A stretch of DNA of 41,634 nucleotides, from the IMG/VR virus record IMGVR_UViG_3300009285_000027; one strand, given 5' to 3'. Numbering within the stretch: position 1 is the stretch's first letter; each line of letters begins with the position of its first letter. The notes under the pieces are model-generated. The model saw only the letters and a program-made list of their open reading frames with translations. It ran no database searches and was not told where the DNA came from. Origin of the DNA: a virus. Of the stretch, positions 1 through 36,303 are shown piece by piece. The translations under genes were made by a program, and so were the position numbers.

Positions 1-77
1 TGCCCCCGGCCCGTGCGAGCCGGGGGCGGTAACGCAAGTTCAGGCGCTAACGGACGTGCGCAACATTTTTGTAATTG
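1..77. repeat. Contig-end direct redundancy (1-77 identical to 41558-41634)
   Basis: Read directly: tgcccccggcccgtgcgagccggggg...caacatttttgtaattg is present at both ends. This implies a circular or circularly permuted molecule of 41,557 unique bp. An exact short overlap looks like assembly closure rather than a physical terminal repeat. Confidence 0.95.
2..27 (-). terminator. GC-rich hairpin downstream of CDS 47..700, no U-tract
   Basis: 9-bp perfect stem gcccccggc / gccgggggc with an 8-nt loop, about 20 nt after the TAG stop of the minus-strand CDS. No T-run on either strand, so terminator function is uncertain. Confidence 0.35.
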
Positions 78-700
78 CGCTTTTCGCCGCTTTGGGTGGT
101 GTATTCTTTTCCGTTCTGCCAGTAGACTCGGCAGGGGAGGGAGAATTCACCGGCCACGCGGACATCATGACTGGTGACGTGCTTCATCAGCCCAGCCGCG
201 GCCTCTACAGTCCATTTATTGACTTTCAACTCGGCGTAGTCGTTGTGGGGTTTCTTGCGTTCATTGCCGTAGAACTCGATATTGACCTTGTTGTCGGGTT
301 GGGGCAGGATGCGGACAAATACAGCATCGTAGACGTTCCACGCTTCCCCGTTGGGTGCGGGAGGTACTGCATCGGCCTGAGCTTGCAGTTTGGCGGCTAA
401 TGGTTTATTTCCCTCTTCGAGCGCGATCTGTGCGGGCTTGTCGGGCTGAGGTGCGGGCGCAGCGGGTGCGAGGTTCTTTGACGGGGGTTTTCCGCCTTGT
501 TCGGCAATGGCAAGACGTGTCTCTGCGATGACTTTCATCACAGACGAAACGGAATATCCGCGAATGGTGAGAAGGTGTTCGTACCCATCCGAGTCGATCC
601 ATTTCAGTGTGTCGGATACGGGCGCTTCTGGAAAGCTGGAAAAATATTCGCGCGCGGTTTGTGGCTTGGGTTCCTGTACAATTACTTTTGGTTCTGACAT
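47..700 (-). CDS. Hypothetical early protein, two globular halves joined by an A/P/Q-rich linker
   Basis: ORF track 47..811. The internal ATG at 700 is preceded by AAGGAGA (rc of 705-711). No family recognised. Confidence 0.7.
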   Translation of the reverse strand: MSEPKVIVQEPKPQTAREYFSSFPEAPVSDTLKWIDSDGYEHLLTIRGYSVSSVMKVIAETRLAIAEQGGKPPSKNLAPAAPAPQPDKPAQIALEEGNKPLAAKLQAQADAVPPAPNGEAWNVYDAVFVRILPQPDNKVNIEFYGNERKKPHNDYAELKVNKWTVEAAAGLMKHVTSHDVRVAGEFSLPCRVYWQNGKEYTTQSGEKRNYKNVAHVR

Positions 701-794
701 TGTTTCTCCTTGTGCTCCTGATGACCGTCGGAGCGTGCGTTTGTTTTGCCGCGTAATCGGGCGCGGTTTCCGTGTCTGCGGGCCGGGCAGGGGG

Positions 795-1046
795 TTAGCG
801 GGTGCCTCCAAGTTTTGATTTCAATTTTCCGATCATGGATTCTTGCGGATAAATCAAGGGCCACGGCGTTGTTTCGACGTTGTAAATATCATGACACGCA
901 TCGCAACGTTCGCAATAATCGGGTGAGTGATAATCGTCTGGCATGTACGCAGATGAGTAATGCCTGACAATGCAGCCTATCAAGTTACATATCAGTCGCG
1001 CCCATTGATGCTTGAAGCCAAACCAAAGCTCATCCAGGCCTATCAT
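795..1046 (-). CDS. Hypothetical Cys/His-rich small protein
   Basis: ORF 795..1091. The ATG at 1046 is preceded by GGAAGGAGA and overlaps the upstream stop (ATGA). Contains a CERCDACH motif. Confidence 0.6.
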   Translation of the reverse strand: MIGLDELWFGFKHQWARLICNLIGCIVRHYSSAYMPDDYHSPDYCERCDACHDIYNVETTPWPLIYPQESMIGKLKSKLGGTR

Positions 1047-1399
1047 AGCGGTCTGTCTCCTTCCCGCGTTGTGATGGTCTCCGTCTGCCACTGTGCGATG
1101 TCGCGCTGTTCGTCGGTCTCAAGCGACTGGATGAGCGCGTCCACCTCCGCGCGCTCTTCGGGCGTGCCCAAGTACTTGTCGAGTTCAATGGGCCATTTGA
1201 GCGCCATCAGTTTGCGGTGCCAGTCGCGTGCGAATTTGACATGATGGGTGGCCCATTCCGGGCGACTGGATTTGTACGAGCGTGCGAGATGTATTTCGTT
1301 GGCACGGCAGCGACGGAGCAGCCTGATCTCGGCTTCGCGTCCGAGTTCAACGCGTGGCGCTTCGATCTCTCTGAGTGCGGCGGAGCGGGAGATGGTCAT
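1043..1399 (-). CDS. Hypothetical early protein
   Basis: 118-aa ORF with 4-nt ATGA overlaps to both neighbours (translational coupling). Confidence 0.65.
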   Translation of the reverse strand: MTISRSAALREIEAPRVELGREAEIRLLRRCRANEIHLARSYKSSRPEWATHHVKFARDWHRKLMALKWPIELDKYLGTPEERAEVDALIQSLETDEQRDIAQWQTETITTREGDRPL

Positions 1400-1704
1400 T
1401 CGAGCACCTCCAGCTCTTGCGCAGTTTCGGTGATCTTTTCGTCGTCACGGATGAAGAAATGACGGCAGATTCCAAACGATTTTTCTTCATAACTGTAAAC
1501 AGTCACAAGTGCGTAGTGATATTTTTCTCCCACATTCAGCAGGTGGGCAACGCGTTTCAGACTGGCTTGAGTTACGTGCTTAAAGATAACGCTGTCTTTG
1601 TTTTTCCTGCCAAAACGAACAGACGAGTCGTTTTCAAGTGTGACTGACTTCACGTCCACCACGCTCATTTTCCATCCGTCTGTTGGGTAGAGTAAGTGTC
1701 TCAT
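1396..1704 (-). CDS. Hypothetical early protein
   Basis: 102-aa ORF with GAGAGGAAAC upstream of the ATG at 1704 and ATGA overlaps on both sides. Confidence 0.65.
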   Translation of the reverse strand: MRHLLYPTDGWKMSVVDVKSVTLENDSSVRFGRKNKDSVIFKHVTQASLKRVAHLLNVGEKYHYALVTVYSYEEKSFGICRHFFIRDDEKITETAQELEVLE

Positions 1705-25726: not shown

Positions 25727-28033
25727 ATGAAAAGAGCAATCTTGCTAACGACGCTGCTGGCAAATCAGGGCGACACCACCGCGCCGACGGTAGTGATTAC
25801 GTGCGACCAATCCAGTCCTACCCCCGTGTCGCCTCTGACGTTTACAGTTACATTCTCGGAGGATGTAACGGGTTTTGAGGTAGCGGATTTCGGAATTACC
25901 AACGGCACGAAAGGCACGTTTACGCCGGTTTCGGCAACGGTTTATACCTTATCCGTTGTTCCTAACGCACTTGCGACTGTGACGGCAACCATCGCTGCCG
26001 GGGTATGTCAGGATGCGTCGGGAAATCTTAACACGGAAGCGACTCCGTTGGCGATTGTGTCTACTGCCATTGTTGTGGATGATTTTACTGACATCCGTTC
26101 CGCTGGAGCAATCAATGGCACATCGGCAACACCCGGGCCGGGCGTTCGCTTATGTGTGGACGTGTCTAATAAATTATCCATAGATGGTTCTGATCTTGTA
26201 TGTGCAGGAGGTAAAGCTGTGCCCGCCGTTGGGGACCCTGGAATTTGGTGGAACGCAGTTACACGCTCCCCAGGTATATGTGCAATTGCCTGCCTTTACC
26301 CTGCCGCAACTACAATCGGCTTTCTGCGAGGAGTGGTATTCGACGGAAATCAAAGCGGGGACACCGTAGACGTGGCATTCAACCTCCCGAATTTTGGTTA
26401 CACTAACGCAAAAATCGGGGCTGCTAATTTCCCGGATTTCAACGGCGTGGTCTATGCTGCGCTTAATGATGTGTATTTGGCTATCGTCCAGAGGTCGGCA
26501 GGCTATCATTTGTTGCTAAAGGGCGGGGGAAGTCATCCCGATTGGGAACGTGCTTGGGTAACGCTGGCGGGGATAACAGAAAACCTTTATCCCGGCGTTT
26601 TAAATTATGATAAAGTTTTCAACGTGGATTATTTCAGGGTTGCGCAATTAGGCGCGCCGTGGACTGCCCCATCCGCTGATGGAACCATTATTGCCTCCCC
26701 TGCGGTGGATGCGGTATTTAGACTCACTGAACGATTTTTGATTTACCTGACTGTTACACTTACCAGTTCTGGAAACATCGAAGTGCACTACAAAATTCAA
26801 GATGCTACGAATTTCATGCGAATTTTGATTTCCAGCGCAGGCGCATATTCCATGGCCAAGGTGGTGGATGGCACACCGTCTACTCTGTTGAGCGGAACCG
26901 GTGTCACAAATGGTATGCGGGTTGGAATACGAGTTCTGCCGTTGAATCTGGGCACATGGTTTCATAAAGGAGACATCACGGGCGCGTCGTATTCATACGA
27001 CGAAACGTTCATGGCGGAGGTGGACGGGAAAATTGCAGATTTAGGAACTGGAGGAGCAATCACAAGTTTAGAAATATATCCATATTACATTGGGGGAGAT
27101 GCGCTGACAGAACTAACCGCAATGAATCATGCAACATTCAAGGGCTTCCAGGTCAACTCCGCGACGATGGCGAACGCTTCGTCGCGTCTCACTATCCCTA
27201 ACGGCGAGACAGGCGGCAATGCAAATCAAGTTGTGCATCCTGATGTAGTCAGGCCAAATCCAACAGGTAAATGGAATGGATATACCTACTGGATGGTTAT
27301 CAATCCATATCCTGAGAGCGACGAATCTAAAGAAAATCCGTGGATTGTAGTTTCCGACGACATGGAGACATGGATCGAACCGCCGGGGATAATCAATCCA
27401 GTCGTGGCGGCTCCGGAAACATCACACAACGCCGATCCTGATTTGTTTTACGATGCAGATTTAGACACTCTATATTTAGCCCAGCTTACGCCTGATGGAT
27501 TAAGCTTGACATCATCCATTGATGGCATAACGTGGGCAGCACAAGCCACAATCATAGCTGGATTTCCTGATGTATCACCATCTATCGCAAAAAAGGGGGA
27601 TGGCACATTTGAAATTTACAGTATATATCCTATTGTCGGACAGGAGGTTTGCCGTGTTCGGACATGTGCCACAATCGACGGCACGTGGAGCAGCCCGACA
27701 ACCTGTTTTACACGCTCGCCATACTCAGACCCACAAAACATGTGGCATTTGGATGTCTATCTTGAAAACGGAAACTATCTTGCTATGATAACCGTCCATG
27801 ACACGGGCGATTATATGTGGCTGGCGTCCTCAACGGATGGGAGACGCTGGCACATTGCCGACACTCCACTGATGTATAAATCTGTTTCGGGGTGGGATAA
27901 CAAATGGATTTATCGCGGTTCGGTGGGAATTCGCACAGCAACAGGATTTGATGTCATCTACTCCGCAAAATCGGATGCCGGTGCAGGAGATTGGGGTGCG
28001 GGCCGAACGCAATTGACTATCCCGCTGGTGTAA
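25727..28033 (+). CDS. Large multidomain protein: N-terminal bacterial Ig-like domain, central lectin-like region, C-terminal Asp-box-like beta-propeller (glycosidase-like)
   Basis: AGGAGG RBS. TAPTVVITC...LTFTVTFSEDVTGFEVADF is Ig-like. SSIDGITW and SSTDGRRW resemble Asp-box motifs. Confidence 0.65.
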   Translation: MKRAILLTTLLANQGDTTAPTVVITCDQSSPTPVSPLTFTVTFSEDVTGFEVADFGITNGTKGTFTPVSATVYTLSVVPNALATVTATIAAGVCQDASGNLNTEATPLAIVSTAIVVDDFTDIRSAGAINGTSATPGPGVRLCVDVSNKLSIDGSDLVCAGGKAVPAVGDPGIWWNAVTRSPGICAIACLYPAATTIGFLRGVVFDGNQSGDTVDVAFNLPNFGYTNAKIGAANFPDFNGVVYAALNDVYLAIVQRSAGYHLLLKGGGSHPDWERAWVTLAGITENLYPGVLNYDKVFNVDYFRVAQLGAPWTAPSADGTIIASPAVDAVFRLTERFLIYLTVTLTSSGNIEVHYKIQDATNFMRILISSAGAYSMAKVVDGTPSTLLSGTGVTNGMRVGIRVLPLNLGTWFHKGDITGASYSYDETFMAEVDGKIADLGTGGAITSLEIYPYYIGGDALTELTAMNHATFKGFQVNSATMANASSRLTIPNGETGGNANQVVHPDVVRPNPTGKWNGYTYWMVINPYPESDESKENPWIVVSDDMETWIEPPGIINPVVAAPETSHNADPDLFYDADLDTLYLAQLTPDGLSLTSSIDGITWAAQATIIAGFPDVSPSIAKKGDGTFEIYSIYPIVGQEVCRVRTCATIDGTWSSPTTCFTRSPYSDPQNMWHLDVYLENGNYLAMITVHDTGDYMWLASSTDGRRWHIADTPLMYKSVSGWDNKWIYRGSVGIRTATGFDVIYSAKSDAGAGDWGAGRTQLTIPLV

Positions 28034-28064
28034 ATAGAATGAACATTCGGTGAAAGGAAAAATC

Positions 28065-28520
28065 ATGACTTACGACAGCGAGAAGGATACGAGAGAACAC
28101 ATCCGGCACGTTGACCATTTCATGAAGGAAATCTTCTTCAAGTTGCTTGACCGAAAAGAAAAGCACGACGCAAGCAAGTTGGAGCAACCCGAAAAGGAAA
28201 CGTACGACACTCTTGTACCCAGGCTCAAACTTTTGAAATATGGAAGTCCTGAGTACGAGGCGCTTCTAAAGGAAATGAAACCCGCGCTTGCTCATCACTT
28301 CGCAAACAACCGTCATCACCCGGAACACTTCGAGAACGGCATTGACGATATGACCTTAGTAGACGTTGTGGAAATGTTTTGTGATTGGATGGCCGCAAGC
28401 ATCAGAAGCGATACAGGATTTTCAAAAGGTTTAGAGGTGAACAAAAAGCGTTTCAATATGTCTGACCAACTTTACAGGATATTTGCCAATACCGCTAAAG
28501 AACTCGGCTGGTATGAATAA
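28065..28520 (+). CDS. DUF5662-like helical (HD-like) protein
   Basis: ORF 28050..28520. The ATG at 28065 follows GAAAGGAAA. Motifs HIRHV...KHDASK...YGSPEY...LAHHFANNRHHPEHF match my recollection of the DUF5662 family. Confidence 0.6.
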   Translation: MTYDSEKDTREHIRHVDHFMKEIFFKLLDRKEKHDASKLEQPEKETYDTLVPRLKLLKYGSPEYEALLKEMKPALAHHFANNRHHPEHFENGIDDMTLVDVVEMFCDWMAASIRSDTGFSKGLEVNKKRFNMSDQLYRIFANTAKELGWYE

Positions 28521-28678
28521 AACGGATATTTGTTTGGAGACTGCATGAAACTAACCGCTCTTGGAGTGAAGACCTGGTGACGTATGACAACGTTATTTGT
28601 ATGACCCAACGCGTGGCGGCGGATGGCCGTAAACACAACGCCACCGATACTGACAGTAACGGTGTACAATATCAACAA

Positions 28679-28696
28679 CATCTCCGCGCGGAGATG
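28679..28696. promoter_or_regulatory. Perfect 18-bp palindrome catctccgc|gcggagatg
   Basis: Read directly. Lies 20 nt upstream of the ATG at 28717. Either an operator-like site or a short hairpin. Confidence 0.3.
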
Positions 28697-28716
28697 AATT
28701 AGTAAAAGGAGATCAT

Positions 28717-28950
28717 ATGCAGTACACTCCGAGACCTGAGGACTTCGAGAAACTTGAGAACAACTTTAAGTATCATGCGCCGAAGCCTGACCAACCCGAA
28801 CGCTATGAGGCAATTCGAGCGAAGGCAAAGGAATTTGCTGAGTTGCTTGTGAAAAATTGCCCGCCTAGCCGCGAGTTATCGGTGTCCCTCACCGAACTTG
28901 AAACGTCAGTTATGTGGGCAAATGCATCAATTGCCCGTAACGAAAAGTAA
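28717..28950 (+). CDS. Small helical-hairpin protein of a widespread phage family (possibly Acb2/Tad1-hairpin-like)
   Basis: 77 aa with AAAGGAGA RBS. Motif FKYHAP...ERYEAIRAKAKEFAELL...SRELSVSLTELETSVMWANASIA. The family assignment is from memory and unverified. Confidence 0.6.
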   Translation: MQYTPRPEDFEKLENNFKYHAPKPDQPERYEAIRAKAKEFAELLVKNCPPSRELSVSLTELETSVMWANASIARNEK

Positions 28951-28964
28951 AAGGAGAATTCTCA

Positions 28965-29171
28965 ATGAATAAGTTTTTGTCAGTTGTGGCGGCGTTGCCG
29001 TTGCCAATCCCCCTGTTTCTGCTGGCCGTGACGTTCATCTATGGCCTGTTGAAATATTTCTTCCCCGATCTGCCGTTCACGCAGGAGCAGATTCAGTACG
29101 TGCTTGAGCAGTTACTCGCACTTTTCGGCATCGTCCTGACTGCCCAGTTGCGAACGCGAGGCGTCTTGTAA
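28965..29171 (+). CDS. Small membrane protein, last rightward gene
   Basis: 68 aa with AAAGGAGA RBS and two hydrophobic helices. Confidence 0.5.
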   Translation: MNKFLSVVAALPLPIPLFLLAVTFIYGLLKYFFPDLPFTQEQIQYVLEQLLALFGIVLTAQLRTRGVL

Positions 29172-29199
29172 CAGACAACGCGGCTCCGATAGAAAAATG

Positions 29200-29237
29200 G
29201 AAACCTCCCGACTTCTGCTTTCGAGTCGGGAGGTTTC
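29200..29237. terminator. Bidirectional intrinsic terminator at the convergence of the two arms
   Basis: gaaacctcccgact (29200-29213) pairs with agtcgggaggtttc (29224-29237), a perfect 14-bp stem. The minus strand continues CAUUUUUCU and the plus strand ends in UUUCGUU. Confidence 0.8.
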
Positions 29238-29252
29238 GTTAGGAGGAGAGCC

Positions 29253-29378
29253 GCACAACGGCTTGCGTTACTGGCTTTGCGGTAGCCCGCAGTGCCGACA
29301 CAATTTACTAACCTCATTCGCCGGCTCGAACTTTTCGCAGGTGCATACCAGCAAAGTCCGCTGCACGCGGTGTTGGGC
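29253..29378 (-). mobile_element. attC-like site D (126 bp)
   Basis: The minus strand reads GCCCAAC-ACCGC-GTGCAGCGGAC ... GCCAGTAAC-GCAAGCC-GTTGTGC. The TAA stop of CDS 29268..29558 lies in the TAAC box. The 5' half pairs with the 3' half (CUUUGC/GCAAAG). Confidence 0.7.
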
Positions 29379-29558
29379 GGCGCGGCCTTGCTCCTCAACT
29401 TCGTATTGATAGAAACCGAGACAGCCGCCGACATTTCCAGCCAGTGAGCCACGCTTTATTTCTTTCGCAGCATCACGCACCAACGCGGCGATGTCTTCAA
29501 TCTCGTCGGCGTAGACAGTTAGGGTGAGTTTCAACTCTGCGTTTTCAACAATTGCCAT
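29268..29558 (-). CDS. Cassette ORF, hypothetical (C-terminal CxC...CxxC encoded by the attC-like element)
   Basis: 96-aa ORF. The last ~37 codons are read from attC-like site D. Confidence 0.6.
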   Translation of the reverse strand: MAIVENAELKLTLTVYADEIEDIAALVRDAAKEIKRGSLAGNVGGCLGFYQYEVEEQGRAAQHRVQRTLLVCTCEKFEPANEVSKLCRHCGLPQSQ

Positions 29559-29584
29559 AATACACTTTCCTTTCTTTATCTACC

Positions 29585-29603
29585 ATAGAACGGCTTGTGT
29601 TAC
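29585..29603 (-). mobile_element. Degenerate attC 3' half-site G
   Basis: The minus strand reads GGGTAAC-ACAAGCC-GTTCTAT. The stop of CDS 29600..29827 lies in the TAAC box. No matching RYYYAAC was found upstream. Confidence 0.35.
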
Positions 29604-29827
29604 CCGTGGCGGCGTACTCCTATCCACGGATAACTCATATAAAAAGTTTCAATCTCTGGATCATTGTGGCATAGTTTTGTAAATATTCTGCCATCTTTCC
29701 CTGTTTCAATATCGAAGCATGAAAATCTACCAGCCGCTAAAACTGCCGCTTTGATATTTTTATACGTGCGCCTCTTGCCGCGCAAATCAGACACGGTGTC
29801 AAAACTATCTAAATATATAACGCTCAT
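29600..29827 (-). CDS. Cassette ORF, hypothetical
   Basis: ORF 29600..29851. The ATG at 29827 follows GAAAGAAAGG. Confidence 0.55.
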   Translation of the reverse strand: MSVIYLDSFDTVSDLRGKRRTYKNIKAAVLAAGRFSCFDIETGKDGRIFTKLCHNDPEIETFYMSYPWIGVRRHG

Positions 29828-29857
29828 TTTGCCTTTCTTTCGGACAGCCACGAAGCC

Positions 29858-29963
29858 ACCTAACGGCTTGTATTACCCGCGAGTGGGCGGGATAAACTTT
29901 CAGACTAGATAAATGCCTGCAAACGGAGAGCATACCCATCATCCGCTGCACGCATTGTTAGGC
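29858..29963 (-). mobile_element. attC-like site E (106 bp, fully intergenic)
   Basis: The minus strand reads GCCTAAC-AATGC-GTGCAGCGGAT ... CCCGCCCACTCGCGGGTAAT-ACAAGCC-GTTAGGT. It starts 3 nt after the TAG of CDS 29967..30185. Confidence 0.75.
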
Positions 29964-29966
29964 GTG

Positions 29967-30185
29967 CTAATTTCCTTCAAGATACAAATAAGACTTTTCC
30001 TTGCGCTTATTTTCTTCACTCATGGTTGGATGTGAGCGCATTATCCAGCCACCTTCGTTTTCGACTCCCTGAACAACATGCCATTCATCTTCTGAAATAA
30101 TTTCATAATCGCTATAGCGACCATTCAGGATTTCCATATCATCAGGATATTGTTCCAACATCTTTTTCAATTGACCTACGTTCAT
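29967..30185 (-). CDS. Cassette ORF, hypothetical acidic protein
   Basis: ORF 29967..30188. The ATG at 30185 lies 7 nt after AAAGGAGA. Confidence 0.6.
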   Translation of the reverse strand: MNVGQLKKMLEQYPDDMEILNGRYSDYEIISEDEWHVVQGVENEGGWIMRSHPTMSEENKRKEKSYLYLEGN

Positions 30186-30209
30186 CACGTTTCTCCTTTC
30201 GCAAGAAAA

Positions 30210-30335
30210 CGACTAACGGCTTGCGTTAGCGGCAGGGCGAACAGATAGAGCAATATAAATTGCCATGTTCGTCCATCTTGAAAGCCGCACTGTTTACGTG
30301 GGTGCAAGCCCCGTCGGCTGCACGCGGTGTTAGAA
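30210..30335 (-). mobile_element. attC-like site C (126 bp)
   Basis: The minus strand reads TTCTAAC-ACCGC-GTGCAGCCGACGG ... GCCGCTAAC-GCAAGCC-GTTAGTC. The TAA of CDS 30226..30477 lies in the TAAC box. Confidence 0.75.
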
Positions 30336-30477
30336 GGCATCTCTCGCATTTCACCTTCTTGGGGGCAACTTTGCAATAGCGATACACTTCATGACCACAT
30401 TCAAGTTTCAACATGCGACCATAGCTATCACCATAAGATACTGACAAAACCTTTGAGTAATTTCTGTAATCTGACAT
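30226..30477 (-). CDS. Cassette ORF, zinc-ribbon-like small protein
   Basis: 83 aa with CGH...C, CERC and CSICSPC. The C-terminal ~36 codons are read from attC-like site C. Confidence 0.6.
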   Translation of the reverse strand: MSDYRNYSKVLSVSYGDSYGRMLKLECGHEVYRYCKVAPKKVKCERCLLTPRAADGACTHVNSAAFKMDEHGNLYCSICSPCR

Positions 30478-30484
30478 AGATGCC

Positions 30485-30554
30485 TTCTAACGGTTTGCGT
30501 TACTGGCGCAAGCCTTATAAGTTTATTTTTCACGCGCCTTGCGGCGGGTTGATC
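30485..30554 (-). mobile_element. attC-like site F (70 bp)
   Basis: The minus strand reads GATCAAC-CCGCCGCAAGGCGCG ... GGCTTGCGCCAGTAAC-GCAAACC-GTTAGAA. The internal dyad GCCGCAAGGC / GGCTTGCGCC pairs at 8 of 10 positions. Confidence 0.6.
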
Positions 30555-30834
30555 CGCATATCGCACACGTAACGGCATCTGTGCCGATCAAAGCATACTC
30601 CGCACCACAATCGGCACAAACCGGCTGCCGCGCGCTGGGATGGGCGGCCTCTGCTTCTTTGATTGCATTGTAAACCGCCTCGTAGGCGCGATTGTATATG
30701 TCTGTAAATTCCGCGCTCGGCCACGGAAGATGCCGTGCGATGGCATCACGTACTGGCGCCATAAACTTTTCGACGCGCTGATCACCCTCCCACCATGGTT
30801 TTATCGGGACTGTTACAGCCTCGTCTTTTTTCAT
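30523..30834 (-). CDS. Hypothetical protein with C-terminal zinc ribbon
   Basis: 103 aa with CADCG...CAICG and ATGA overlap to the upstream gene. Confidence 0.6.
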   Translation of the reverse strand: MKKDEAVTVPIKPWWEGDQRVEKFMAPVRDAIARHLPWPSAEFTDIYNRAYEAVYNAIKEAEAAHPSARQPVCADCGAEYALIGTDAVTCAICGSTRRKAREK

Positions 30835-31163
30835 TTCGTCTCCGTTCTGTTTGGGCGTGTGTTCTTTGACATTAGTTTTATCTGTTCTCTCTTATCGTTG
30901 AAGTATTTCAGTGCTTCCGGAATTCGATGAAACCAGCGCGGCAAAATTCGGTAGGGGTTGGGCGGAGTTATCAAACCCAGTGCGTTCAATATCTTTTCGT
31001 CTTGTGGAACGTAGTTTGCATCATCCACAAAACGCTGGAGAGTTCCAAACTTTATCTCTCCGCCGTAGTAGTCACGAGCGATGACGCGGTAGGATTTCAC
31101 GACCTTATGCAGGCGGCGCAGCTGTGACTTTGCTTTCCTGATTTTGGCTTTAGACGGTTTCAT
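30831..31163 (-). CDS. Hypothetical basic protein
   Basis: 110-aa Lys/Arg-rich ORF. Confidence 0.55.
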   Translation of the reverse strand: MKPSKAKIRKAKSQLRRLHKVVKSYRVIARDYYGGEIKFGTLQRFVDDANYVPQDEKILNALGLITPPNPYRILPRWFHRIPEALKYFNDKREQIKLMSKNTRPNRTETK

Positions 31164-31264
31164 TTGGTGGCGGCTTTCCGTATATGTTTTTTAGTAGCTC
31201 ACGCAGGTGTCACGGGCGGTGACGGGCATTGTAATTCTGGTTGTGCGACCCCAAAACGCCCGTT

Positions 31265-31387
31265 TCACTTCTTCGGCGGCTTGCGTAGGTCGCGCCAGGC
31301 GATGTACGCCAGGGCGCACGCGATCCCGGCCACAACCCATGCGACCTGTGCGCATAACTCCCAACCACGAGTGATACTGTCATCCAT
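31265..31387 (-). CDS. Possible 40-aa single-TM peptide (below the ORF-track cutoff)
   Basis: ATG (rc of 31385-31387) to TGA (31265-31267), giving MDDSITRGWELCAQVAWVVAGIACALAYIAWRDLRKPPKK. More protein-like than the overlapping Arg-rich 66-aa track ORF 31210..31410. Confidence 0.35.
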   Translation of the reverse strand: MDDSITRGWELCAQVAWVVAGIACALAYIAWRDLRKPPKK

Positions 31388-31395
31388 TTTTGTCT

Positions 31396-31429
31396 CACTT
31401 TTTCACTCACTTGTCACTTCACTTCACTT
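31396..31429. repeat. Cluster of cactt pentamers (five copies, three in tandem at 31415-31429)
   Basis: Read directly. On the gene-sense strand it is a purine-rich AAGTG array just upstream of the small TM ORF. Confidence 0.8.
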
Positions 31430-31480
31430 CGCTTTTTCGCTTTACGGGTAAATCTGCATTCCAGGCGTGTAAATAATATG

Positions 31481-32032
31481 TCAGTGGGGGATAGGCGGTA
31501 AAGGATTTCCATTGGCAATCTTACGCACAAGTTTCCAGTCCCCTACCGTATCGGGAGAGTTTGCGTGTTCGGATTTGCGGAACAACGCGCCGTAGTGCCT
31601 CCACTTGTTCTTGAGTTCTACAAACTCAGAGCGCGGAAACTTCCCTGACTTGACCCAGAAACCCTCAGTCGTATCAACCTTGTCCAAGCCCCAGTCACTC
31701 CGCATCTGAATTAGCGTGCGCGCAAATCCGCGTTCCTTGTCGAATTTTACAAGGTCAACCGTCATTTGATTTACGACGCCATTGATGCGGACTGGCGGCA
31801 TGATGCGTTGGGCGGGCCGCTTGGGAGCCTCTGGCGCGTGTGATGTGTATTCAAGGTCTGACTTCTCAGCTCGCAGTAAAAAGATTGCATGACAGCAAGC
31901 GACAAAGCCGAAACCAAAGTAAATGGAGTAACTGAACCACGGAGACCACTTACCGCCAAAGTTGTAAACCAAATAGACGCCTGCTAACAGGCTTGCATTT
32001 GGAAACAACCAGTAGTAATGCTGGACATACAT
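31481..32032 (-). CDS. Membrane protein (two N-terminal TM helices + soluble C-terminal domain)
   Basis: 183 aa with TAATG overlap to the upstream gene. Confidence 0.65.
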   Translation of the reverse strand: MYVQHYYWLFPNASLLAGVYLVYNFGGKWSPWFSYSIYFGFGFVACCHAIFLLRAEKSDLEYTSHAPEAPKRPAQRIMPPVRINGVVNQMTVDLVKFDKERGFARTLIQMRSDWGLDKVDTTEGFWVKSGKFPRSEFVELKNKWRHYGALFRKSEHANSPDTVGDWKLVRKIANGNPLPPIPH

Positions 32033-32283
32033 TACACGTCTCTCACTTGTTCGCGTCTCAGAATGATCGGCCCTTCCCCTTTCGACACATTACCGTGATA
32101 GCGATTGATATAGACTCGGAGTGTGCCGTCGGGCTGCTCGTAATATTTGCAATCATACGCGGCGATCCCCATGTCGCGCGTTTCTTTATCGTAGATCACG
32201 TTCCCATTTTTCAACATTCGGTTGACGCCGATAATGGTGATCGTGTCGATGGGGATTAGATCATCGCCTACAATCTCAGGCAT
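32032..32283 (-). CDS. Hypothetical protein
   Basis: ORF 32032..32394. The ATG at 32283 overlaps the upstream TAA (TAATG). Confidence 0.55.
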   Translation of the reverse strand: MPEIVGDDLIPIDTITIIGVNRMLKNGNVIYDKETRDMGIAAYDCKYYEQPDGTLRVYINRYHGNVSKGEGPIILRREQVRDV

Positions 32284-32420
32284 TATCTTTTTCTCAACAC
32301 AATCAGGAAGAACACAATCACAGCGGCAACGATTGGTAACGCCGCATCTCCAATCTCGACCCACTGTGCAACCACGATAATGGAAGAACCGCACGCGAAG
32401 ATGAAAGCAATGATGAGCAT
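32283..32420 (-). CDS. 45-aa double-TM mini-protein
   Basis: ORF 32283..32522. The ATG at 32420 follows AGGAA. Sequence MLIIAFIFACGSSIIVVAQWVEIGDAALPIVAAVIVFFLIVL. Confidence 0.45.
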   Translation of the reverse strand: MLIIAFIFACGSSIIVVAQWVEIGDAALPIVAAVIVFFLIVLRKR

Positions 32421-32448
32421 GATTCCTGCAATTCTGTTCCTGGACACG

Positions 32449-32565
32449 TTACGCCTCCGTGAAAATCTTCCACGCCCACCACAACAAAAACAGGAGTCCC
32501 GGAACTGTGAGCACAACGACAAGTAGAATTTCTCTGACGCGAGTAACCTTGTTTTTATCCATCAT
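32449..32565 (-). CDS. 38-aa single-TM mini-protein (below the ORF-track cutoff)
   Basis: ATGATG start (rc of 32560-32565) overlapping the upstream stop. Sequence MMDKNKVTRVREILLVVVLTVPGLLFLLWWAWKIFTEA. Confidence 0.35.
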   Translation of the reverse strand: MMDKNKVTRVREILLVVVLTVPGLLFLLWWAWKIFTEA

Positions 32566-32758
32566 TCACATCCTTGAAATAATAGCCTGGGTCGTCCTGC
32601 ATCGGCGGCGTTTCGTGCGGCTCAGCGGGAGTGTGGTCCGAGTGAAACCAGATGGGTGGCAGTGGCACGATGCCTTTCCGCCACAGAAACGAAATCAGGA
32701 TAGCGGCGATGAGGCCGAATACAAAAAACAGAATGGAGGCGTTCTCGGGATTACTCAT
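32555..32758 (-). CDS. 67-aa single-TM protein
   Basis: ATGA overlap to the upstream gene. TM segment ILFFVFGLIAAILISFLW. Confidence 0.5.
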   Translation of the reverse strand: MSNPENASILFFVFGLIAAILISFLWRKGIVPLPPIWFHSDHTPAEPHETPPMQDDPGYYFKDVNDG

Positions 32759-32967
32759 TTTGACCTGATGAAATTGATGCTGTTATCTTCTTCGTCAATC
32801 ACAACCTTTTCAACCCGGCCTGCACGATACGCCTGTTCAATTTCGCGCCTTACGCGGCGGGATGATCTCCGATTGATTTTCCATACTGCAAAACGCGAAC
32901 TGCCTTTTAATAAAATAAATGTGGCAGTAAAAAACAAAATACCAAATGGAAGGAACGAGTCTATCAT
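32755..32967 (-). CDS. 70-aa single-TM protein
   Basis: ATGA overlaps. TM segment FLPFGILFFTATFILL followed by a basic tail. Confidence 0.5.
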   Translation of the reverse strand: MIDSFLPFGILFFTATFILLKGSSRFAVWKINRRSSRRVRREIEQAYRAGRVEKVVIDEEDNSINFIRSK

Positions 32968-33164
32968 TGGTTGCGTTCCGTCTCATGCAGATGCAGAGTA
33001 CACACGTCATACCACCACTGCATAATGGCATTTTTCGCCTTACGCCCAACGTTATTCTCAATTTCACTCTCTGATGCGTTTGCGACAGCTTCAAAAAAAG
33101 TCTCGCGTTCTTTTGCAGGCAGATTGTCTTCCGAGTTTATAGCGGTCAACAGTTTCGTAAACAT
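32964..33164 (-). CDS. Hypothetical small protein
   Basis: 66-aa ORF with GGAAAGGA upstream of the ATG. Confidence 0.55.
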   Translation of the reverse strand: MFTKLLTAINSEDNLPAKERETFFEAVANASESEIENNVGRKAKNAIMQWWYDVCTLHLHETERNQ

Positions 33165-33175
33165 GCTTATATCCT

Positions 33176-33195
33176 TTCCAACGGTCTCGGTTAGC
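33176..33195 (-). mobile_element. Degenerate attC 3' half-site H
   Basis: The minus strand reads GCCGCTAAC-CGAGACC-GTTGGAA. The TAA of CDS 33191..33400 lies in the TAAC box. Confidence 0.35.
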
Positions 33196-33400
33196 GGCTC
33201 TTCTTGTAGCGGGAATTACGAATGTCATCCATGTCCATTGCATGGATTTCGCCACCACCTTGTTGAGTGGCTTCACGAACTCGCTCGATAGTATGATTGA
33301 GGTTGATGACGGCTGCGCCAAGATAGTTTTGCGCTCTCTCGTCTCCAATTTTCACAACACGCAATTTTTCTACAATACTCATCAATTCATCAAGATACAT
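33191..33400 (-). CDS. Hypothetical small helical protein
   Basis: ORF 33191..33457. The ATG at 33400 follows GAGGAGG. Confidence 0.6.
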   Translation of the reverse strand: MYLDELMSIVEKLRVVKIGDERAQNYLGAAVINLNHTIERVREATQQGGGEIHAMDMDDIRNSRYKKSR

Positions 33401-33420
33401 TTTGCCTCCTCGGGCGAATC

Positions 33421-33615
33421 GCCCAACGGTTTGCGTTACTGGCGGGGCTTTCTGCAATAAAAACAGTGGTCAAGATGCTTACTATTGACCTCTTTACAAT
33501 GTTTGCATCTCCAATACAACGGAAAGAATAATAGTCTGAGCAGCCAATCAATCATTAGATTCATCGTTTTCTGCTGATGCAGCTTGCCTGCCGTCTGGTG
33601 CACGCGGTGTTAGGC
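33421..33615 (-). mobile_element. attC-like site B (195 bp, unusually long centre)
   Basis: The minus strand reads GCCTAAC-ACCGC-GTGCACCAGACGG ... CCCCGCCAGTAAC-GCAAACC-GTTGGGC. The AT-rich centre includes the hairpin GGTCAA/TTGACC followed by TGTTTTTATT. Confidence 0.6.
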
Positions 33616-34219
33616 AGCCCCACTGCTGCGCCATTGCACCTGCTATGGAATCAAACGATATGGAGCGATTTTTTTCGCCATGATTAGCTTCTGTAAAATA
33701 ACGCTTCTTGGCTCTTGGTGTATTATCAATATAGGTTGGCTCTGGATAATCTGTCATCGTTTTCTTTCCAAATAAATCATCTTCTTTCCACCACCATAAT
33801 TTAGGTAAGTTCTTTAGCCAAAGGCATGTACGCTTTAATTGACGCTCACCAAAATAATAGGGGTGAATTATCTGATCTGGTTTCCTGTAAACTTTACCTG
33901 GATACCCTACGGGATTTTCAATGCACGCCATTGGTATGTTGCAATTCACAAATAGCATAAAAAACTTCATGGCTTCTTCTCGTAGCTCAACTCTACCTGG
34001 TTTGTTCCAAACGTGGTTAGCTGCGTAACTTAGATAAGTGCAAGGCGGGTGAGCAATGAGCAAATCCCAATTTTCAAAAAGGATGTCTCGCACATCACCC
34101 TGATAGTGATTGCCAGGTGTTTCACTCTCGCGGAAGTCGCATGACCAAGCATCATGTCCCCGAGCCGCGAAAGCGCTCCTGATCGTTCCCGTGAATTCAC
34201 ACGCTACTAAGATACGCAT
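33548..34219 (-). CDS. DNA cytosine-C5 methyltransferase-like protein (phage ACEF...PPCT type)
   Basis: MRILVACEFTGTIRSAF (motif I-like) and IAHPPCTYLS (PC motif). Confidence 0.7.
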   Translation of the reverse strand: MRILVACEFTGTIRSAFAARGHDAWSCDFRESETPGNHYQGDVRDILFENWDLLIAHPPCTYLSYAANHVWNKPGRVELREEAMKFFMLFVNCNIPMACIENPVGYPGKVYRKPDQIIHPYYFGERQLKRTCLWLKNLPKLWWWKEDDLFGKKTMTDYPEPTYIDNTPRAKKRYFTEANHGEKNRSISFDSIAGAMAQQWGCLTPRAPDGRQAASAENDESND

Positions 34220-34226
34220 AGAGGTT

Positions 34227-34353
34227 GCCTAACGGCTTGCGTTACCCGCAAGTGGCGGGCGTAGCATCTTCCCAAAGAATAGAATCACCTTCAGGGTGGA
34301 TAAGATAATTTTGGCGGGCGAATCCCACTTGTCGGGTGGACGCTGTGTTAGAT
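34227..34353 (-). mobile_element. attC-like site A (127 bp)
   Basis: The minus strand reads ATCTAAC-ACAGC-GTCCACCCGAC ... CGCCCGCCACTTGCGGGTAAC-GCAAGCC-GTTAGGC. The TAA of CDS 34242..34985 lies in the TAAC box. The next ATG (34219) is 8 nt after the core. Confidence 0.75.
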
Positions 34354-34985
34354 GCGGTAATGCCTTCAAGCGCGTCAAGGATTTCGCACCACAGATCGAG
34401 CGGGACTACTGCGCGTTCAGCCGCGCCAGATAAACCCTGTACCCCTGTTTGAGACCCACGCGGGGCGGACTCGTGACACTTGCGCCCATTCTTGCAAATC
34501 GGACGAGGCGACCAGCCAGGGACAAATCCCCAAAGATCGGTCGGCTTCATGTTCTTATCACCATACTGGCAATAAGTGATCGTTGTTCGTGGTAGAGTTT
34601 TCATAAATGGCAACTTACGTAATACTCCGCGTGGATTTTCGATAATGAAGGCTTTAGGTTTCATGTCTCGGATAATTTGCAAGGTATGCTTGACCAACCT
34701 TTGAGACAATTCAGCGTGTGGCGTTTTTGGAATATACGCTCTCGCACCACCACCCCAATGATGCCCCATTGCCGCAACACTAAACGCTTCACATGGCGGG
34801 GATGCCCACACAAAATCGAAATATCCGAACTTCTCTGCTGTCATTTCAAAAATATCAGCCGTTATTGTGCAGTTAAATTCTGGCACATAATCAAGCGTGA
34901 TGTATTCATGCCCGCGTTGTTCTATAAACGCGCGTCTTTGATTGCCACCAATGCCAGCGAACAGATCAAGGATTTTCATAAGCAT
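34242..34985 (-). CDS. DNA (cytosine-5)-methyltransferase
   Basis: Motif I DLFAGIGG, motif IV SPPCEAFS, ENPRG, and a C-terminal AVVPLDLW motif X-like segment. The start is ATG 34985 or 34979. The last ~40 codons are read from attC-like site A. Confidence 0.85.
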   Translation of the reverse strand: MLMKILDLFAGIGGNQRRAFIEQRGHEYITLDYVPEFNCTITADIFEMTAEKFGYFDFVWASPPCEAFSVAAMGHHWGGGARAYIPKTPHAELSQRLVKHTLQIIRDMKPKAFIIENPRGVLRKLPFMKTLPRTTITYCQYGDKNMKPTDLWGFVPGWSPRPICKNGRKCHESAPRGSQTGVQGLSGAAERAVVPLDLWCEILDALEGITASNTASTRQVGFARQNYLIHPEGDSILWEDATPATCG

Positions 34986-35001
34986 CTAACTACTGCGTAA
35001 G
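34984..35001 (-). mobile_element. Core-site-containing half-site I (5' boundary of the first methyltransferase cassette)
   Basis: The minus strand reads CGCTTAC-GCAGTA-GTTAGAT, and the GTTAGATG core overlaps the ATG at 34985. No RYYYAAC partner was found upstream. Confidence 0.45.
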
Positions 35002-35045
35002 CGGACGGTTTCCGCATAAGACACCGCCGGGGGACAAAAAGCCGC

Positions 35046-35486
35046 CTAGCATTCCCGCTCCGCGACCAGCGCACGGAGGTCTATCACTGACCACTTCCAT
35101 TTCTTCGGCATCGCTAGTTCCGTCAATTCCACCATGACGCTTTCACCGTAAGTTTTGAGCATGTAGTTATCATAATAATAATGCCAGTGGTTGTGCGCGC
35201 CGTTGCAGGTTGAGCATTGGCAATTACAATTTCTTAGATCGTACCGAATGCGCTGTTTGCCCGCTGGTATCCAATGACTAATCGTCAAACCTTCCGTTGC
35301 CCCGCAGGTGACACAGCAACCATCACGGGCTTTCACAAAATCGGCTGTCAGATTCCATAGTTTCTCTTCCAGTTGACGACGTTCCGATTTTGAACGGCGG
35401 CGCTTCTGCTTCTTTTGCTTCACCGGCTTGGGTTTACCGATGATGGTCATAACTTCGTGGTGTTGCGCGGCGCGGAGGGTATTCAT
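35046..35486 (-). CDS. ninG: NinG/Rap-like structure-specific (HNH-like) endonuclease
   Basis: Basic N-terminus, then CCVTCG...SHW...RIRYDLRN...CQCSTCN, matching the lambda NinG pattern C-x2-CG...H...R(F/Y)..RN...QC..CN. Confidence 0.65.
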   Translation of the reverse strand: MNTLRAAQHHEVMTIIGKPKPVKQKKQKRRRSKSERRQLEEKLWNLTADFVKARDGCCVTCGATEGLTISHWIPAGKQRIRYDLRNCNCQCSTCNGAHNHWHYYYDNYMLKTYGESVMVELTELAMPKKWKWSVIDLRALVAEREC

Positions 35487-36112
35487 TTACATCTTCCACA
35501 TTCGCAGGCGGGCGGAACCTTCGCGTCAATCGCGGCGAGAATGGCCTTCGCGTCAATCGCGGCGAGAATGGCCTTCGCTTTATTCTCCGCTTTCTCTGCC
35601 TGCCGTTCGTTGTACATGACGGGAATAACAAGGTGCTCGTATGTCTCACGGCAGCGGTAGACAGTGAAACATTGCCGCCAACCGCCGTAACGCATGTAAA
35701 GTTGGACCTGAATGAAATGCTTGTAGGAGGCCTTCATTTCCTTGCGGATACGCTCGAACTTGTCCACGGTCAACGATTTGATCTCCAGCAGGTCGTTATC
35801 CAGGGTCAACCCGTCGATGTGACCACACAGGCGGTCATCAAACGGGGCGATCACGCCGTATCCATTATCCATACAGCCGATACCTGATTTTTGCAGGAGC
35901 GACAAAACGCTCCGCTCCTGCTCATATCCTGCAAAGCAAAAACGATGCGTGGCTTCTGAGATTTCCCCTACGCCGTCAAAATATTCGTTGTACGCCGCGC
36001 GTGGGCAACCTGATATTTTGGAAATGCCGAGATACTCTCGGTGCTGATCCAGTCCGCTATTTGCGGCGATCTGCTGAGTGAGTGTATTTTGAATTTCGTT
36101 TACAGTTGTCAT
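35483..36112 (-). CDS. PD-(D/E)XK nuclease, Cas4/RecB-like with putative Fe-S cysteines
   Basis: Catalytic-type motif GHIDG...LEIKS. One N-terminal Cys (GCPRAAY) plus a C-terminal CECGRC cluster. Confidence 0.7.
   Translation of the reverse strand: MTTVNEIQNTLTQQIAANSGLDQHREYLGISKISGCPRAAYNEYFDGVGEISEATHRFCFAGYEQERSVLSLLQKSGIGCMDNGYGVIAPFDDRLCGHIDGLTLDNDLLEIKSLTVDKFERIRKEMKASYKHFIQVQLYMRYGGWRQCFTVYRCRETYEHLVIPVMYNERQAEKAENKAKAILAAIDAKAILAAIDAKVPPACECGRCK
35518..35578. repeat. Perfect 27-bp tandem duplication (2.3 copies), in frame, inside the nuclease gene
   Basis: ccttcgcgtcaatcgcggcgagaatgg occurs at 35518-35544 and 35545-35571, then ccttcgc. Encodes AILAAIDAK twice. Confidence 0.95.
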
Positions 36113-36303
36113 TCTTTCACCACAATCAGCGGAATAGCTGGAAAGTGATAGTTGCGATATGGCTTGCCAGTCTTGCCATTGATGCGGACCTCGAAGATGT
36201 CGCGTACATCTACAATCGTTACATGCTTGCCGCGTATCCGCATGAGCGAAATTATGCGTCGCTTACGCCGAATGGTTGTACCGCAGTGGGGGCATTTCAT
36301 CAC
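36109..36303 (-). CDS. Small zinc-ribbon protein
   Basis: 64 aa with CPHCG at the N-terminus and ATGA overlaps. Confidence 0.55.
   Translation of the reverse strand: MMKCPHCGTTIRRKRRIISLMRIRGKHVTIVDVRDIFEVRINGKTGKPYRNYHFPAIPLIVVKE

Follow-up and report, generated by a model that had tools for sequence, protein, structure and literature searches.

Integron attC sites, the recombination sites that accompany gene cassettes, are already on record in phage genomes, and the stretch of DNA considered here, IMG/VR virus record IMGVR_UViG_3300009285_000027 (41.6 kb, from a groundwater phage, and called the window at its whole length), contains a distinct set of such elements between positions 29253 and 35001. 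The elements of the window are very probably genuine attC sites that belong to a real phage genome and make up a cluster of attC sites lacking an integrase (CALIN). As far as it can be read from the sequence, their identity rests on their anatomy, the covariation of their paired bases, a crossover footprint, the score of a covariance model and the association of the family with integron integrases (IntI). The closest described systems come from the screening of 10,705 isolate phage genomes by Qi, Rajabal, Ghaly, Tetu and Gillings (2023, Front Microbiol, PMC9892861), which yielded three complete integrons, one In0 element and 17 CALINs, the latter being defined by the presence of at least two predicted sites. 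With 21 out of 10,705 genomes concerned, the association was judged infrequent; virulent as well as temperate phages were involved, and IntI1 recombined five out of the six phage attC sites tested (PMC9892861).

Like the CALINs reported by Qi et al. (PMC9892861), the window displays attC sites flanking co-oriented open reading frames (ORFs), is devoid of intI and contains prominent methyltransferase cassettes, and both convey the same idea of phages tapping the cassette pool of integrons. The window differs from these CALINs in its five complete sites and four half-sites, which belong to one homogeneous family matching the arrays of the presumed host phylum; this family is distributed among dozens of IMG/VR contigs, and the phage, probably one of uncultivated Chloroflexota, has no detectable relative in INPHARED. 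A first-pass annotation of the window had regarded an attC array inside a tailed-phage genome as undescribed, a view which does not hold since phage CALINs were published in 2023 (PMC9892861); the window is a very clear new example and not a new kind of element. What it adds is a case with unusually good support, in which a phage of an uncultivated phylum is equipped with the attC family of its presumed host and at least one related phage possesses its own integrase. Phage attC arrays of this type are probably widespread.

Sedentary chromosomal integrons, exemplified by the Vibrio cholerae repeats, also rely on a single attC family per lineage and exhibit the same memory between the R'' end of one cassette and the R' end of the preceding site. 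They consist, however, of long arrays of small promoterless ORFs with an intI gene divergent from the array, whereas the window corresponds to a 41.6-kb phage without intI or recognisable attI, with few cassettes and a heavy overlap between ORFs and sites. The attC sites of class-1 integron cassettes (aadA2, dfrA5, arr-3 and blaVIM-2) and those of the window are built in the same order, namely R'', a 5-nucleotide (nt) spacer, the L'' helix, a loop, L', a spacer and R', and the L'' helix carries in both a bulged C and a bulged A on the top strand, the bulge arms of aadA2 and dfrA5 reading GTT-C-AAGCCG-A-CCGCGC and TAT-G-CAATTG-A-CGGTAA, respectively. Even the primary sequences are similar, as can be seen from GCATAAC ATGAA GTTGCAGCCGAC in blaVIM-2 versus TTCTAAC ACCGC GTGCAGCCGAC in E3, the third complete site of the window. 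The window sites differ from the class-1 sites by a 3' spacer longer by one base, by 5 instead of 6 bp between the bulges, by a G.A mismatch or a 2x1 internal loop in place of a single bulged base, and by the greater length of most copies (~90 or ~125 nt). Short conserved sequences located between the accessory genes of a plastic region, and thought to promote shuffling, also occur as the promoter early stem-loops (PeSL) of T4-type phages, called mobile regulatory cassettes, and as the boundary sequences of lambdoid phages. These act via homologous recombination and carry promoters or terminators; they are not known to contain RYYYAAC/GTTRRRY cores or a bulged-base hairpin, or to depend on a dedicated tyrosine recombinase.

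The attC Sites of the Window

Two conserved boxes delimit the elements. The 3' box, TAACGCAAGCCGTT, occurs in seven copies with at most two mismatches and the 5' box, AACACCGCGTGCAGC, in five copies with at most three mismatches, exclusively on the minus strand and within 29257-34349, where a repeat finder grouped them as families D1-D4; elsewhere in the 41.6-kb window, no box copy of comparable quality was found. When every 5' box is joined to the 3' box that follows it, five complete elements (E1 to E5) of 106-195 nt are obtained, all starting with RYYYAAC and ending with GTTRRRY, and the centres of E3, E4 and E5 cannot be aligned. The end boxes and the conserved inner boxes enclosing variable centres, which the first-pass annotation had quoted, are present as stated when the minus strand is read, and its assignment of the elements to the integron attC type is borne out by the model scores, covarying helices, crossover memory at G|TT and neighbouring integrases described below. 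Five of the six attC elements it had counted are complete, the remaining one being a 3' half-site.

A covariance model called R2, built full-length from 84 elements taken exclusively from bacterial genome bins (mostly Chloroflexota), matches four elements of the window over their full length, with scores of 76.3, 55.7, 55.2 and 45.9 bits (E = 1.8e-19 to 5.3e-11) and ends that are reproduced exactly; the next-best match in the window scores 11.6 bits. An earlier model, R1, restricted to the left 30 and right 30 nt, was unable to span centres of 65-135 nt and gave partial, misleading matches, so that R2 was used instead. All site positions given hereafter refer to the minus strand. Site E1 (34353-34227, 127 nt, ATCTAAC...GTTAGGC) obtains the highest score (76.3 bits, E = 1.8e-19, model positions 1-129); its helices are paired at 5/7 positions in the R box, 4/4 in La, 5/5 in Lb and 7/8 in the distal stem, and its centroid DNA fold displays the R and L helices. 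Site E2 (33615-33421, 195 nt, GCCTAAC...GTTGGGC) keeps both boxes intact around a centre expanded to 135 nt and is the weakest of the five, with inner helices paired at 3/5 and 3/8 positions. Because R2 cannot span its 195 nt, E2 has no full-length match to this model, which covers it partially (33421-33507, 8.7 bits), and its recognition is based only on box matches and pair counts. Site E3 (30335-30211, 125 nt, TTCTAAC...GTTAGTC) is identified by R2 (55.2 bits, E = 1.3e-13) as well as by pair counts, and E4 (29963-29858, 106 nt, GCCTAAC...GTTAGGT; 55.7 bits, E = 9.8e-14) is non-coding. The last site, E5 (29378-29253, 126 nt, GCCCAAC...GTTGTGC; 45.9 bits, E = 5.3e-11), has an R'' that pairs best with its own R' (9/10).

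Four half-sites complete this set. The entry half-site S0 (~34982-35008), CCGTCCGCTTACGCAGTA|GTTAGATGC, consists of a degenerate 3' box devoid of a 5' box; read in reverse complement, its R' extension GTTAGATGC gives exactly GCATCTAAC, the R'' of E1. A degenerate 3' box, GCCGCTAACCGAGACCGTTGGAA, of repeat family D7 follows ORF 33191-33391 at ~33178-33198, the stop codon of the ORF being the TAA of the box. The sixth element of the first-pass annotation (30554-30485), which begins with GATCAAC, contains a good 3' box at its right end (30485-30510, CCAGTAACGCAAACC|GTTAGAAGGCATCT) and no 5' box, obtains 11.6 bits (E = 0.19) from R2 and takes part in a perfect inverted repeat of 14 nt (I12, 100%). 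Finally, the half-site TAACACAAGCC|GTTCTAT (29585-29602), located after ORF 29600-29827, lacks a 5' box and has an R' falling outside GTTRRRY.

Since the stretch 33420-30555 comprises about nine ORFs and no complete sites, the elements form two small clusters rather than one continuous array. Sites E1 and E2 are 612 nt apart and E3, E4 and E5 lie within 1.1 kb, that is, at least two attC sites occur within 4 kb with no intI nearby, as in a CALIN; of the intI, attI and Pc promoter that adjoin the array of a complete integron, the window lacks intI and a recognisable attI, and no tyrosine recombinase is detectable in it. A 41.6-kb genome without intI thus harbours a CALIN and not a complete integron, and the gene-cassette array proposed earlier is retained as cassettes inserted in a phage operon, though in two clusters and with no integrase. 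A weak look-alike of the 5' box, CCCGCCCAAC GCATC ATGCCGC (31795-31816, minus strand, family D3), is embedded in a 183-aa (amino acid) ORF (31481-32032) and has an R''-like end complementary to GTTGGGCG, the R' of E2; this look-alike could be the remnant of a larger ancient cassette, or due to chance. Between the two clusters, a purine-rich repeat, GAAGTGAAGTGAAGTGACAAGTGAGTGAAAAAGTGAGAC (31400-31460, minus strand), precedes a 40-aa hydrophobic ORF (31265-31387).

The Element Family and Its Fold

Viral relatives were collected by searching IMG/VR for exact copies of the 14-nt 3' box, which revealed many contigs with both boxes recurring in co-oriented arrays. A gap-free alignment of 74 distinct elements, each cut to its first and last 30 nt, gives the consensus RYYYAAC-AMAGC-GTGC-A NNN G-A-[stem] ... 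[stem']-C NNN T-AACGCAARCC-GTTRRRY, in which no variation affects AAC or the TT of GTT, and the G of GTT is at least 90% conserved. On the proposed structure, 85.4% of the cells are paired versus 27-36% when the 3' partner is slid by one to three columns, and double (compensatory) changes occur in 18 of the 24 pairs. The inner helices taken separately are paired in 87.6% of the cells, with compensatory changes in 15 of 17 pairs. The covariation score reaches 0.407 as compared to 0.145 +/- 0.009 for shuffled alignments, none of the 500 shuffles attaining this value, and the three central pairs of the 5-bp helix occur as C-G, G-C, U-A and A-U.

The fold consists, in order, of the R box, an unpaired spacer, a GCGT/ACGC helix, a 2x1 internal loop, the 5-bp helix, a bulged A and a variable stem. 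Two positions, the bulged A of column 22 and the unpaired C16 (T and G, respectively, on the bottom strand), show a conservation of at least 90%, and the arm that bears them is also the one with the C and A bulges in the aadA2 attC. Element lengths in the viral loci range from 89 to 318 nt. A gathering-threshold scan of the window against Rfam, which has no attC family, gave no match.

Integrases, Covariance Models and the Presumed Host

The bacterial counterparts of these sites were sought with a two-box pattern over 185,579 species genomes. At least 120 stretches matched, overwhelmingly from Chloroflexota bins (Anaerolineales, Caldilineales) and many of them with 4-10 sites per 8 kb. A tblastn search with IntI1, a query checked to be 100% identical to the annotated intI1, uncovered homologues (43-52% identity) in eight site-bearing Anaerolineae loci. 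Seven of these are complete, 47-52% identical to IntI1, and adjoin the sites in divergent orientation, which is the classical integron layout; the eighth (L209) is cut by the end of the locus and shares 43% identity over 226 aa. The three IntI proteins tested all pass the NCBIfam model TIGR02249 'integron integrase' with 401-463 bits for a cut-off of 265. As a side observation, the attI regions of six of the Anaerolineae loci (L125, L158, L170, L181, L209 and L156) carry NNNATA|GTTRGSC preceded by one or two inverted repeats, TTATACAGCG...CGCTGTATAA; the similarity of S0 to such regions is only loose.

Applied to 60 kb of plasmid DNA with class-1 integrons, R2 ranks the attC sites of arr-3, aadA2 and dfrA5 as its top three matches, with exact R''-R' ends, and that of aadB sixth. 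This ranking is not accidental. Seven class-1 plasmid integrons provided only about nine distinct attC sites. The attC type of the window matches the Anaerolineae arrays, and the host of this groundwater phage, which could not be placed otherwise, is thus probably a member of the Anaerolineae (Chloroflexota). Integrons have previously been recorded in Chloroflexi by Cury et al. 2016 (PMC4889954).

The Crossover Footprint

If the crossover takes place at G|TT, the bases following GTT in a given site should belong to the next cassette and complement the R'' of that cassette, as they indeed do. This footprint was quantified by scoring the reverse complement of each R'' and its extension over nine positions. 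For 62 pairs from the viral loci and the window, the identity amounts to 6.15/9 with the upstream R', 4.00 with the own R' and 4.12 with a random R', the upstream R' beating the own R' in 45 pairs, equalling it in 11 and losing in 6. Bacterial arrays (n = 162) yield 7.13/9, 4.67 and 4.41, respectively. Within the window, the half-site 30485-30510 matches E3 at 14/14 positions, S0 matches E1 at 9/9 and E1 matches E2 at 10/11. Such a pattern implies that the mobile unit is the gene together with its site, and excludes a miniature transposing element.

Related Phages and the Exchange of Cassettes

With R2, another 32 loci, consisting of 31 viral contigs and one locus from a bacterial bin (L222), yield 122 sites at E < 1e-3. 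All sites of a locus occupy the same strand, except for a weak reverse-strand duplicate match in L105, and the largest numbers are found in L111 (14 sites, the maximum within one stretch), L067 (12) and L110 (11). Five of these loci (L110, L111, L105, L060 and L017) encode proteins sharing 25-63% identity with window proteins that serve in structure or replication.

The most informative relative is IMGVR_UViG_3300020050_010824, represented by the loci L270 and L110, whose gene order starts with the tape measure, Dit, repressor, RepO/DnaD-like and DnaC-like genes. The replication genes are followed, in the same orientation, by a full IntI of 327 aa (TIGR02249, 397 bits); 17 nt after the intI stop codon, the attI-like junction ATA|GTTAGTTTGCG is the exact complement of the R'' of the first cassette, and at least 11 attC sites come after this junction, then converging tail genes homologous to those of the window. 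This arrangement represents a predicted complete integron, co-oriented with the early operon of a phage and embedded in it. The same contig also carries a second tail module in the opposite orientation, and may hold two phage genomes. On a sister contig (L260), an N6/N4 methyltransferase occupies the first cassette position behind intI. Another contig, L058, was discarded as a phage: besides its IntI and attC sites, a second tyrosine integrase is the only clear phage hallmark that it shows, and it may be an integrative element.

Traces of exchange are apparent for individual cassettes. The block containing the 72-aa cassette (window positions 30218-29961) is 90% identical over 258 nt to a segment of an otherwise unrelated phage contig, L267; it starts at C|GTT and ends at R'', between unrelated flanks, and the upstream attC of L267 is of another sequence type. 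A second attC type missed by R2 (GCCCAAC AGTCT ATG-G-AGCCG-A-CCCCGCC ... GGCGGGG-CGGCT-CAT AGTTGAC GTTGGGC) is visible in L267 at positions 1-1500 (plus strand), and the same contig contains two copies of a 26-nt repeat, AACACGCCGGGCAACTGATTATCAAC|GTT, which may be a collapsed attC without hairpin. Homologues of the 72-aa protein occur as ordinary, tightly packed genes in PhoH/ClpP phages of 60-90 kb. In the search for the window cassettes elsewhere, as suggested by the first-pass annotation, the methyltransferase of cassette 2 was encountered as a cassette of another array, its homologue in L222 (42% identical) lying exactly between two attC sites, whereas the copy of cassette 1 lacks an intact site: L055 (8250-9250, minus strand) encodes a protein 74% identical to the cassette-1 methyltransferase followed by a mutated attC which does not score, has lost 18 nt of its stem and is still recognisable by its boxes (~13/21 and 11/19 consensus matches). 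The L055 site is to be read as a putative fossil attC in another phage.

The closest relatives of the window are sister contigs from groundwater and aquifer metagenomes. All nine that were compared are 99.0-100% identical to the window over the covered part of 28001-36200, and they originate from several samples and assemblers, an agreement which indicates that the array is not an assembly artefact. As an observation apart, a segment of 47 nt (33252-33298), located inside ORF 33191-33391 of the window, is missing from the seven sister contigs spanning this point and shifts the reading frame; it corresponds either to a population indel or to an assembly difference.

Competing Explanations and Proposed Functioning

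Several observations weigh against the interpretation of the window as a phage CALIN borrowed from Anaerolineae integrons and handled by IntI. No integrase is at hand in the window, for which a tblastn search with two integron-integrase queries gave nothing better than E = 2.4, and the eight sister contigs reaching beyond the first cassettes keep the gene order of the window, without any cassette gain, loss or permutation (apart from the 47-nt indel), so that the cassette variants expected earlier among related metagenome contigs were not seen. In L267, the own downstream attC of the 72-aa cassette was not inherited together with the gene, which is not predicted by a pure exchange at G|TT. The R2 matches to class-1 attC sites are marginal (E = 0.01-0.07; 11-17 bits); the bulge spacing of 5 bp deviates from the 6 bp of the aadA2 and dfrA5 sites, with a 2x1 loop as the first bulge, and the second L helix of E2, E4 and E5 has only 3/5 pairs in each. 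The folding of the bottom strand proposed in the first-pass annotation gave a divided answer, since the centroid of E1 shows the R and L helices while single-sequence DNA folding is only slightly superior to shuffled sequences (z = -0.4 to -2.4) and, for E5, the minimum-energy structure departs from the attC fold. Lastly, the host is assigned from site similarity alone.

These points feed the main rival explanation, according to which the boxes, conserved over 20-30 nt and flanking each gene at either end, are by now mere linkers for the homologous or Red-type shuffling of modules between co-infecting phages, as has been put forward for the T4 PeSL elements and the lambdoid boundary sequences, the attC structure being a relic of an ancient capture and the integrase idle. 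This explanation is unlikely and keeps some weight from the invariant array of the eight sister contigs, the several half-sites and the L267 block that stops at R'' without the attC of the cassette; the weakened helices, the absence of an integrase from the window and the decay in place of the L055 attC speak in the same sense. It fails, however, to account for the left edge of the L267 block, which lies exactly at C|GTT even though the upstream attC sites of the window and of L267 are unrelated in sequence, a situation that makes homologous exchange impossible at this edge. In addition, compensatory changes keep the helices paired in the copies from viral contigs too, which implies that the folded form has remained under selection, the R''/R' memory is equally strong in viral and bacterial arrays, and relatives with an intact intI beside their arrays do exist. 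Signals acting at the RNA level in the operon (terminators, attenuators or processing hairpins), or a conserved C-terminal peptide module, would be in keeping with hairpins located at gene ends, with a 3' box whose TAA/TAG closes two of the three frames, with centres often encoding CxxC motifs, and with the idea that attC sites act as weak terminators (cited in PMC9892861). Yet no T-runs follow the hairpins of the elements, the boxes are translated in three different frames and, in E4, not at all, conservation and covariation operate at the level of nucleotides and pairs, and the identical family serves bacterial integrons; such an origin is accordingly improbable, and the sites may have a secondary RNA role beside their attC function.

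Miniature inverted-repeat transposable elements (MITEs) or palindrome-associated elements of the IS200/IS605 type, inserted repeatedly between genes, would similarly be repeated hairpins of small size (90-195 nt) whose inverted termini are of the RYYYAAC/GTTRRRY kind. The lack of target-site duplications and of a transposase, the occurrence of the same family in arrays beside integron integrases and, above all, the organization of the flanks, which are unrelated on both sides of an element and inverted repeats on both sides of a gene, so that the unit is the gene plus its site, make this origin highly improbable. The joining of a bacterial integron fragment to a phage contig during assembly could be imagined from the abundance of the same site arrays in bacterial bins of similar habitats; it can hardly be entertained for nine contigs of several samples and assemblers that are 99.0-100% identical, with identical portal and NinG proteins, and in which the sites alternate with genes of the phage in the interval from NinG to the operon terminator.

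Under the preferred interpretation, namely attC sites forming a phage CALIN, the site type corresponds in its predicted features to that of the Anaerolineae chromosomal integrons and bounds cassettes located distally in the leftward (early/nin-like) operon, between the NinG-like gene and the operon terminator. The bottom strand of an attC site (the plus strand of the window) would fold into the R box, the unpaired spacer and the L helices with a bulged G and a bulged T; IntI, provided in trans by a chromosomal integron of the host or by a co-infecting phage bearing intI, would cut at G|TT, and cassettes would leave as circles or enter by attC x attC or attC x attI recombination. Being promoterless, the cassettes would be expressed by read-through from the phage operon, each with its own ribosome-binding site. 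The use of IntI in trans, the expression by read-through and an anti-restriction role of the methyltransferases are inferred from established integron biology, and there is about an even chance that the sites of the window are still mobile today through IntI acting in trans. The half-sites and weakened helices suggest that some cassettes have become fixed.

A broader and more tentative proposal, which we hold as somewhat doubtful, is that a lineage of Anaerolineae phages uses the integron system as its own accessory-gene platform. Phages resembling IMGVR_UViG_3300020050_010824 would then keep a complete integron and those resembling the window would keep cassettes and rely on IntI in trans, with phages and host chromosomal integrons sharing one cassette pool; attC sites placed around the 3' ends of typical phage genes, such as the methyltransferases and the 72-aa protein, would be snapshots of cassette birth or decay. 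Phage-borne arrays of the host's own attC type may be common and homogeneous in Chloroflexota phages, some of them encoding an integrase. This would imply a gene flow in both directions between phages and chromosomal integrons and, for the phages, a site-specific gain of anti-defence genes. The origin of cassettes may also become accessible to comparison, as copies with an intact attC, a copy with a decayed attC (L055) and non-cassette copies from other phages (L261, L262) are available.

Cassette Genes

Most ORFs of the region run through the elements, and the profile matches of the methyltransferases extend past R'', so that the simple picture of an element directly 3' of one ORF has to be abandoned. 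Other features of the first-pass annotation are confirmed: the stop codon often falls inside the TAAC box (six of the nine ORFs end at the TAA of the 3' box), the next start codon comes shortly after the core (8-31 nt) and the 5' box is read in three frames, as N-T-A in E1, L-T-P-R-A in E2 and E3, and Q-H-R-V in E5. As the TAA/TAG of the 3' box closes two of the three reading frames, an ORF entering an attC site is usually terminated there.

Cassette 1 (34242-34985, minus strand, as for the other cassette ORFs) encodes a C-5 cytosine DNA methyltransferase of 247 aa (PF00145, E = 6.9e-10; phrog_757, E = 5.4e-24), the last ~37 codons of which are located within E1, up to the TAA of the 3' box which serves as stop codon. 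Cassette 2 (33548-34219) encodes a DNA methyltransferase of 223 aa (phrog_757, E = 7.1e-50) with its last ~22 codons within E2. These two orphan methyltransferases plausibly serve an anti-restriction purpose. The next cassette ORF (30226-30477, 83 aa) ends with a CxxC-rich tail inside E3 and has no Pfam or PHROG match; it is followed by the cleanest cassette, an ORF of 72-73 aa (29967-30188) whose TAG stop codon just precedes R'', and the last one (29268-29558, 96 aa), recognized from its reading frame and stop context, carries a CxC...CxxC tail inside E5. No Pfam or PHROG family matches the cassette ORFs of 83, 72, 75 and 96 aa. The centre of E2 holds a further small ORF of the CxxC...CxxC type (33436-33603, 42-55 aa, Zn-ribbon-like), with a weak match to PF00641 (E = 3.8e-4, below cut-off).

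Zn-ribbon-like CxxC...CxxC motifs recur in the centres of the attC sites and at the C-terminal ends of cassette ORFs (33436-33603, 30226-30300, 29268-29340 and 30523-30620, minus strand), the Pfam Zn-ribbon matches of the window ORFs being weak (E ~3e-4, below the cut-offs). This recurrence may be a coincidence, a property of the cassette pool or functional.

The Phage Genome

The window encodes, among other proteins, a portal (PF04860), a small terminase (PF03592), and Rep O-like and NinG-like proteins. A rightward structural operon (~3300-28500) converges with a leftward early operon (~41450-29250), of which the attC region occupies the last 5.7 kb, downstream of NinG. Portal and NinG proteins identical to those of the window occur on 16-20 groundwater or aquifer metagenome contigs obtained by various pipelines, most of them ~41.3-41.6 kb long, and the window is probably a complete phage genome. 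Comparison with the 50,697 deposited phage records of INPHARED gave no match for either the region (megablast) or the portal (tblastn), and hence no isolate relative of the phage; the NinG-like and 209-aa flanking proteins found no relatives among the viral contigs.

At the meeting point of the two operons, a perfect 14-bp hairpin (29200-29237, inverted repeat I9) followed by a T-run on the minus strand is likely the terminator at which the leftward operon and its array end in front of the rightward structural operon. A consensus terminator scan did not report this hairpin, probably because of its 10-nt loop. Just across this putative terminator, a 77-aa ORF (28717-28950, plus strand), for which the identical gene of the sister contigs matches PF24729 (Acb2_Tad1_hairpin), suggests a sponge-like protein directed against the cyclic-oligonucleotide-based antiphage signalling system (CBASS) or Thoeris; in view of this match, the place where the two operons meet may be an anti-defence corner.

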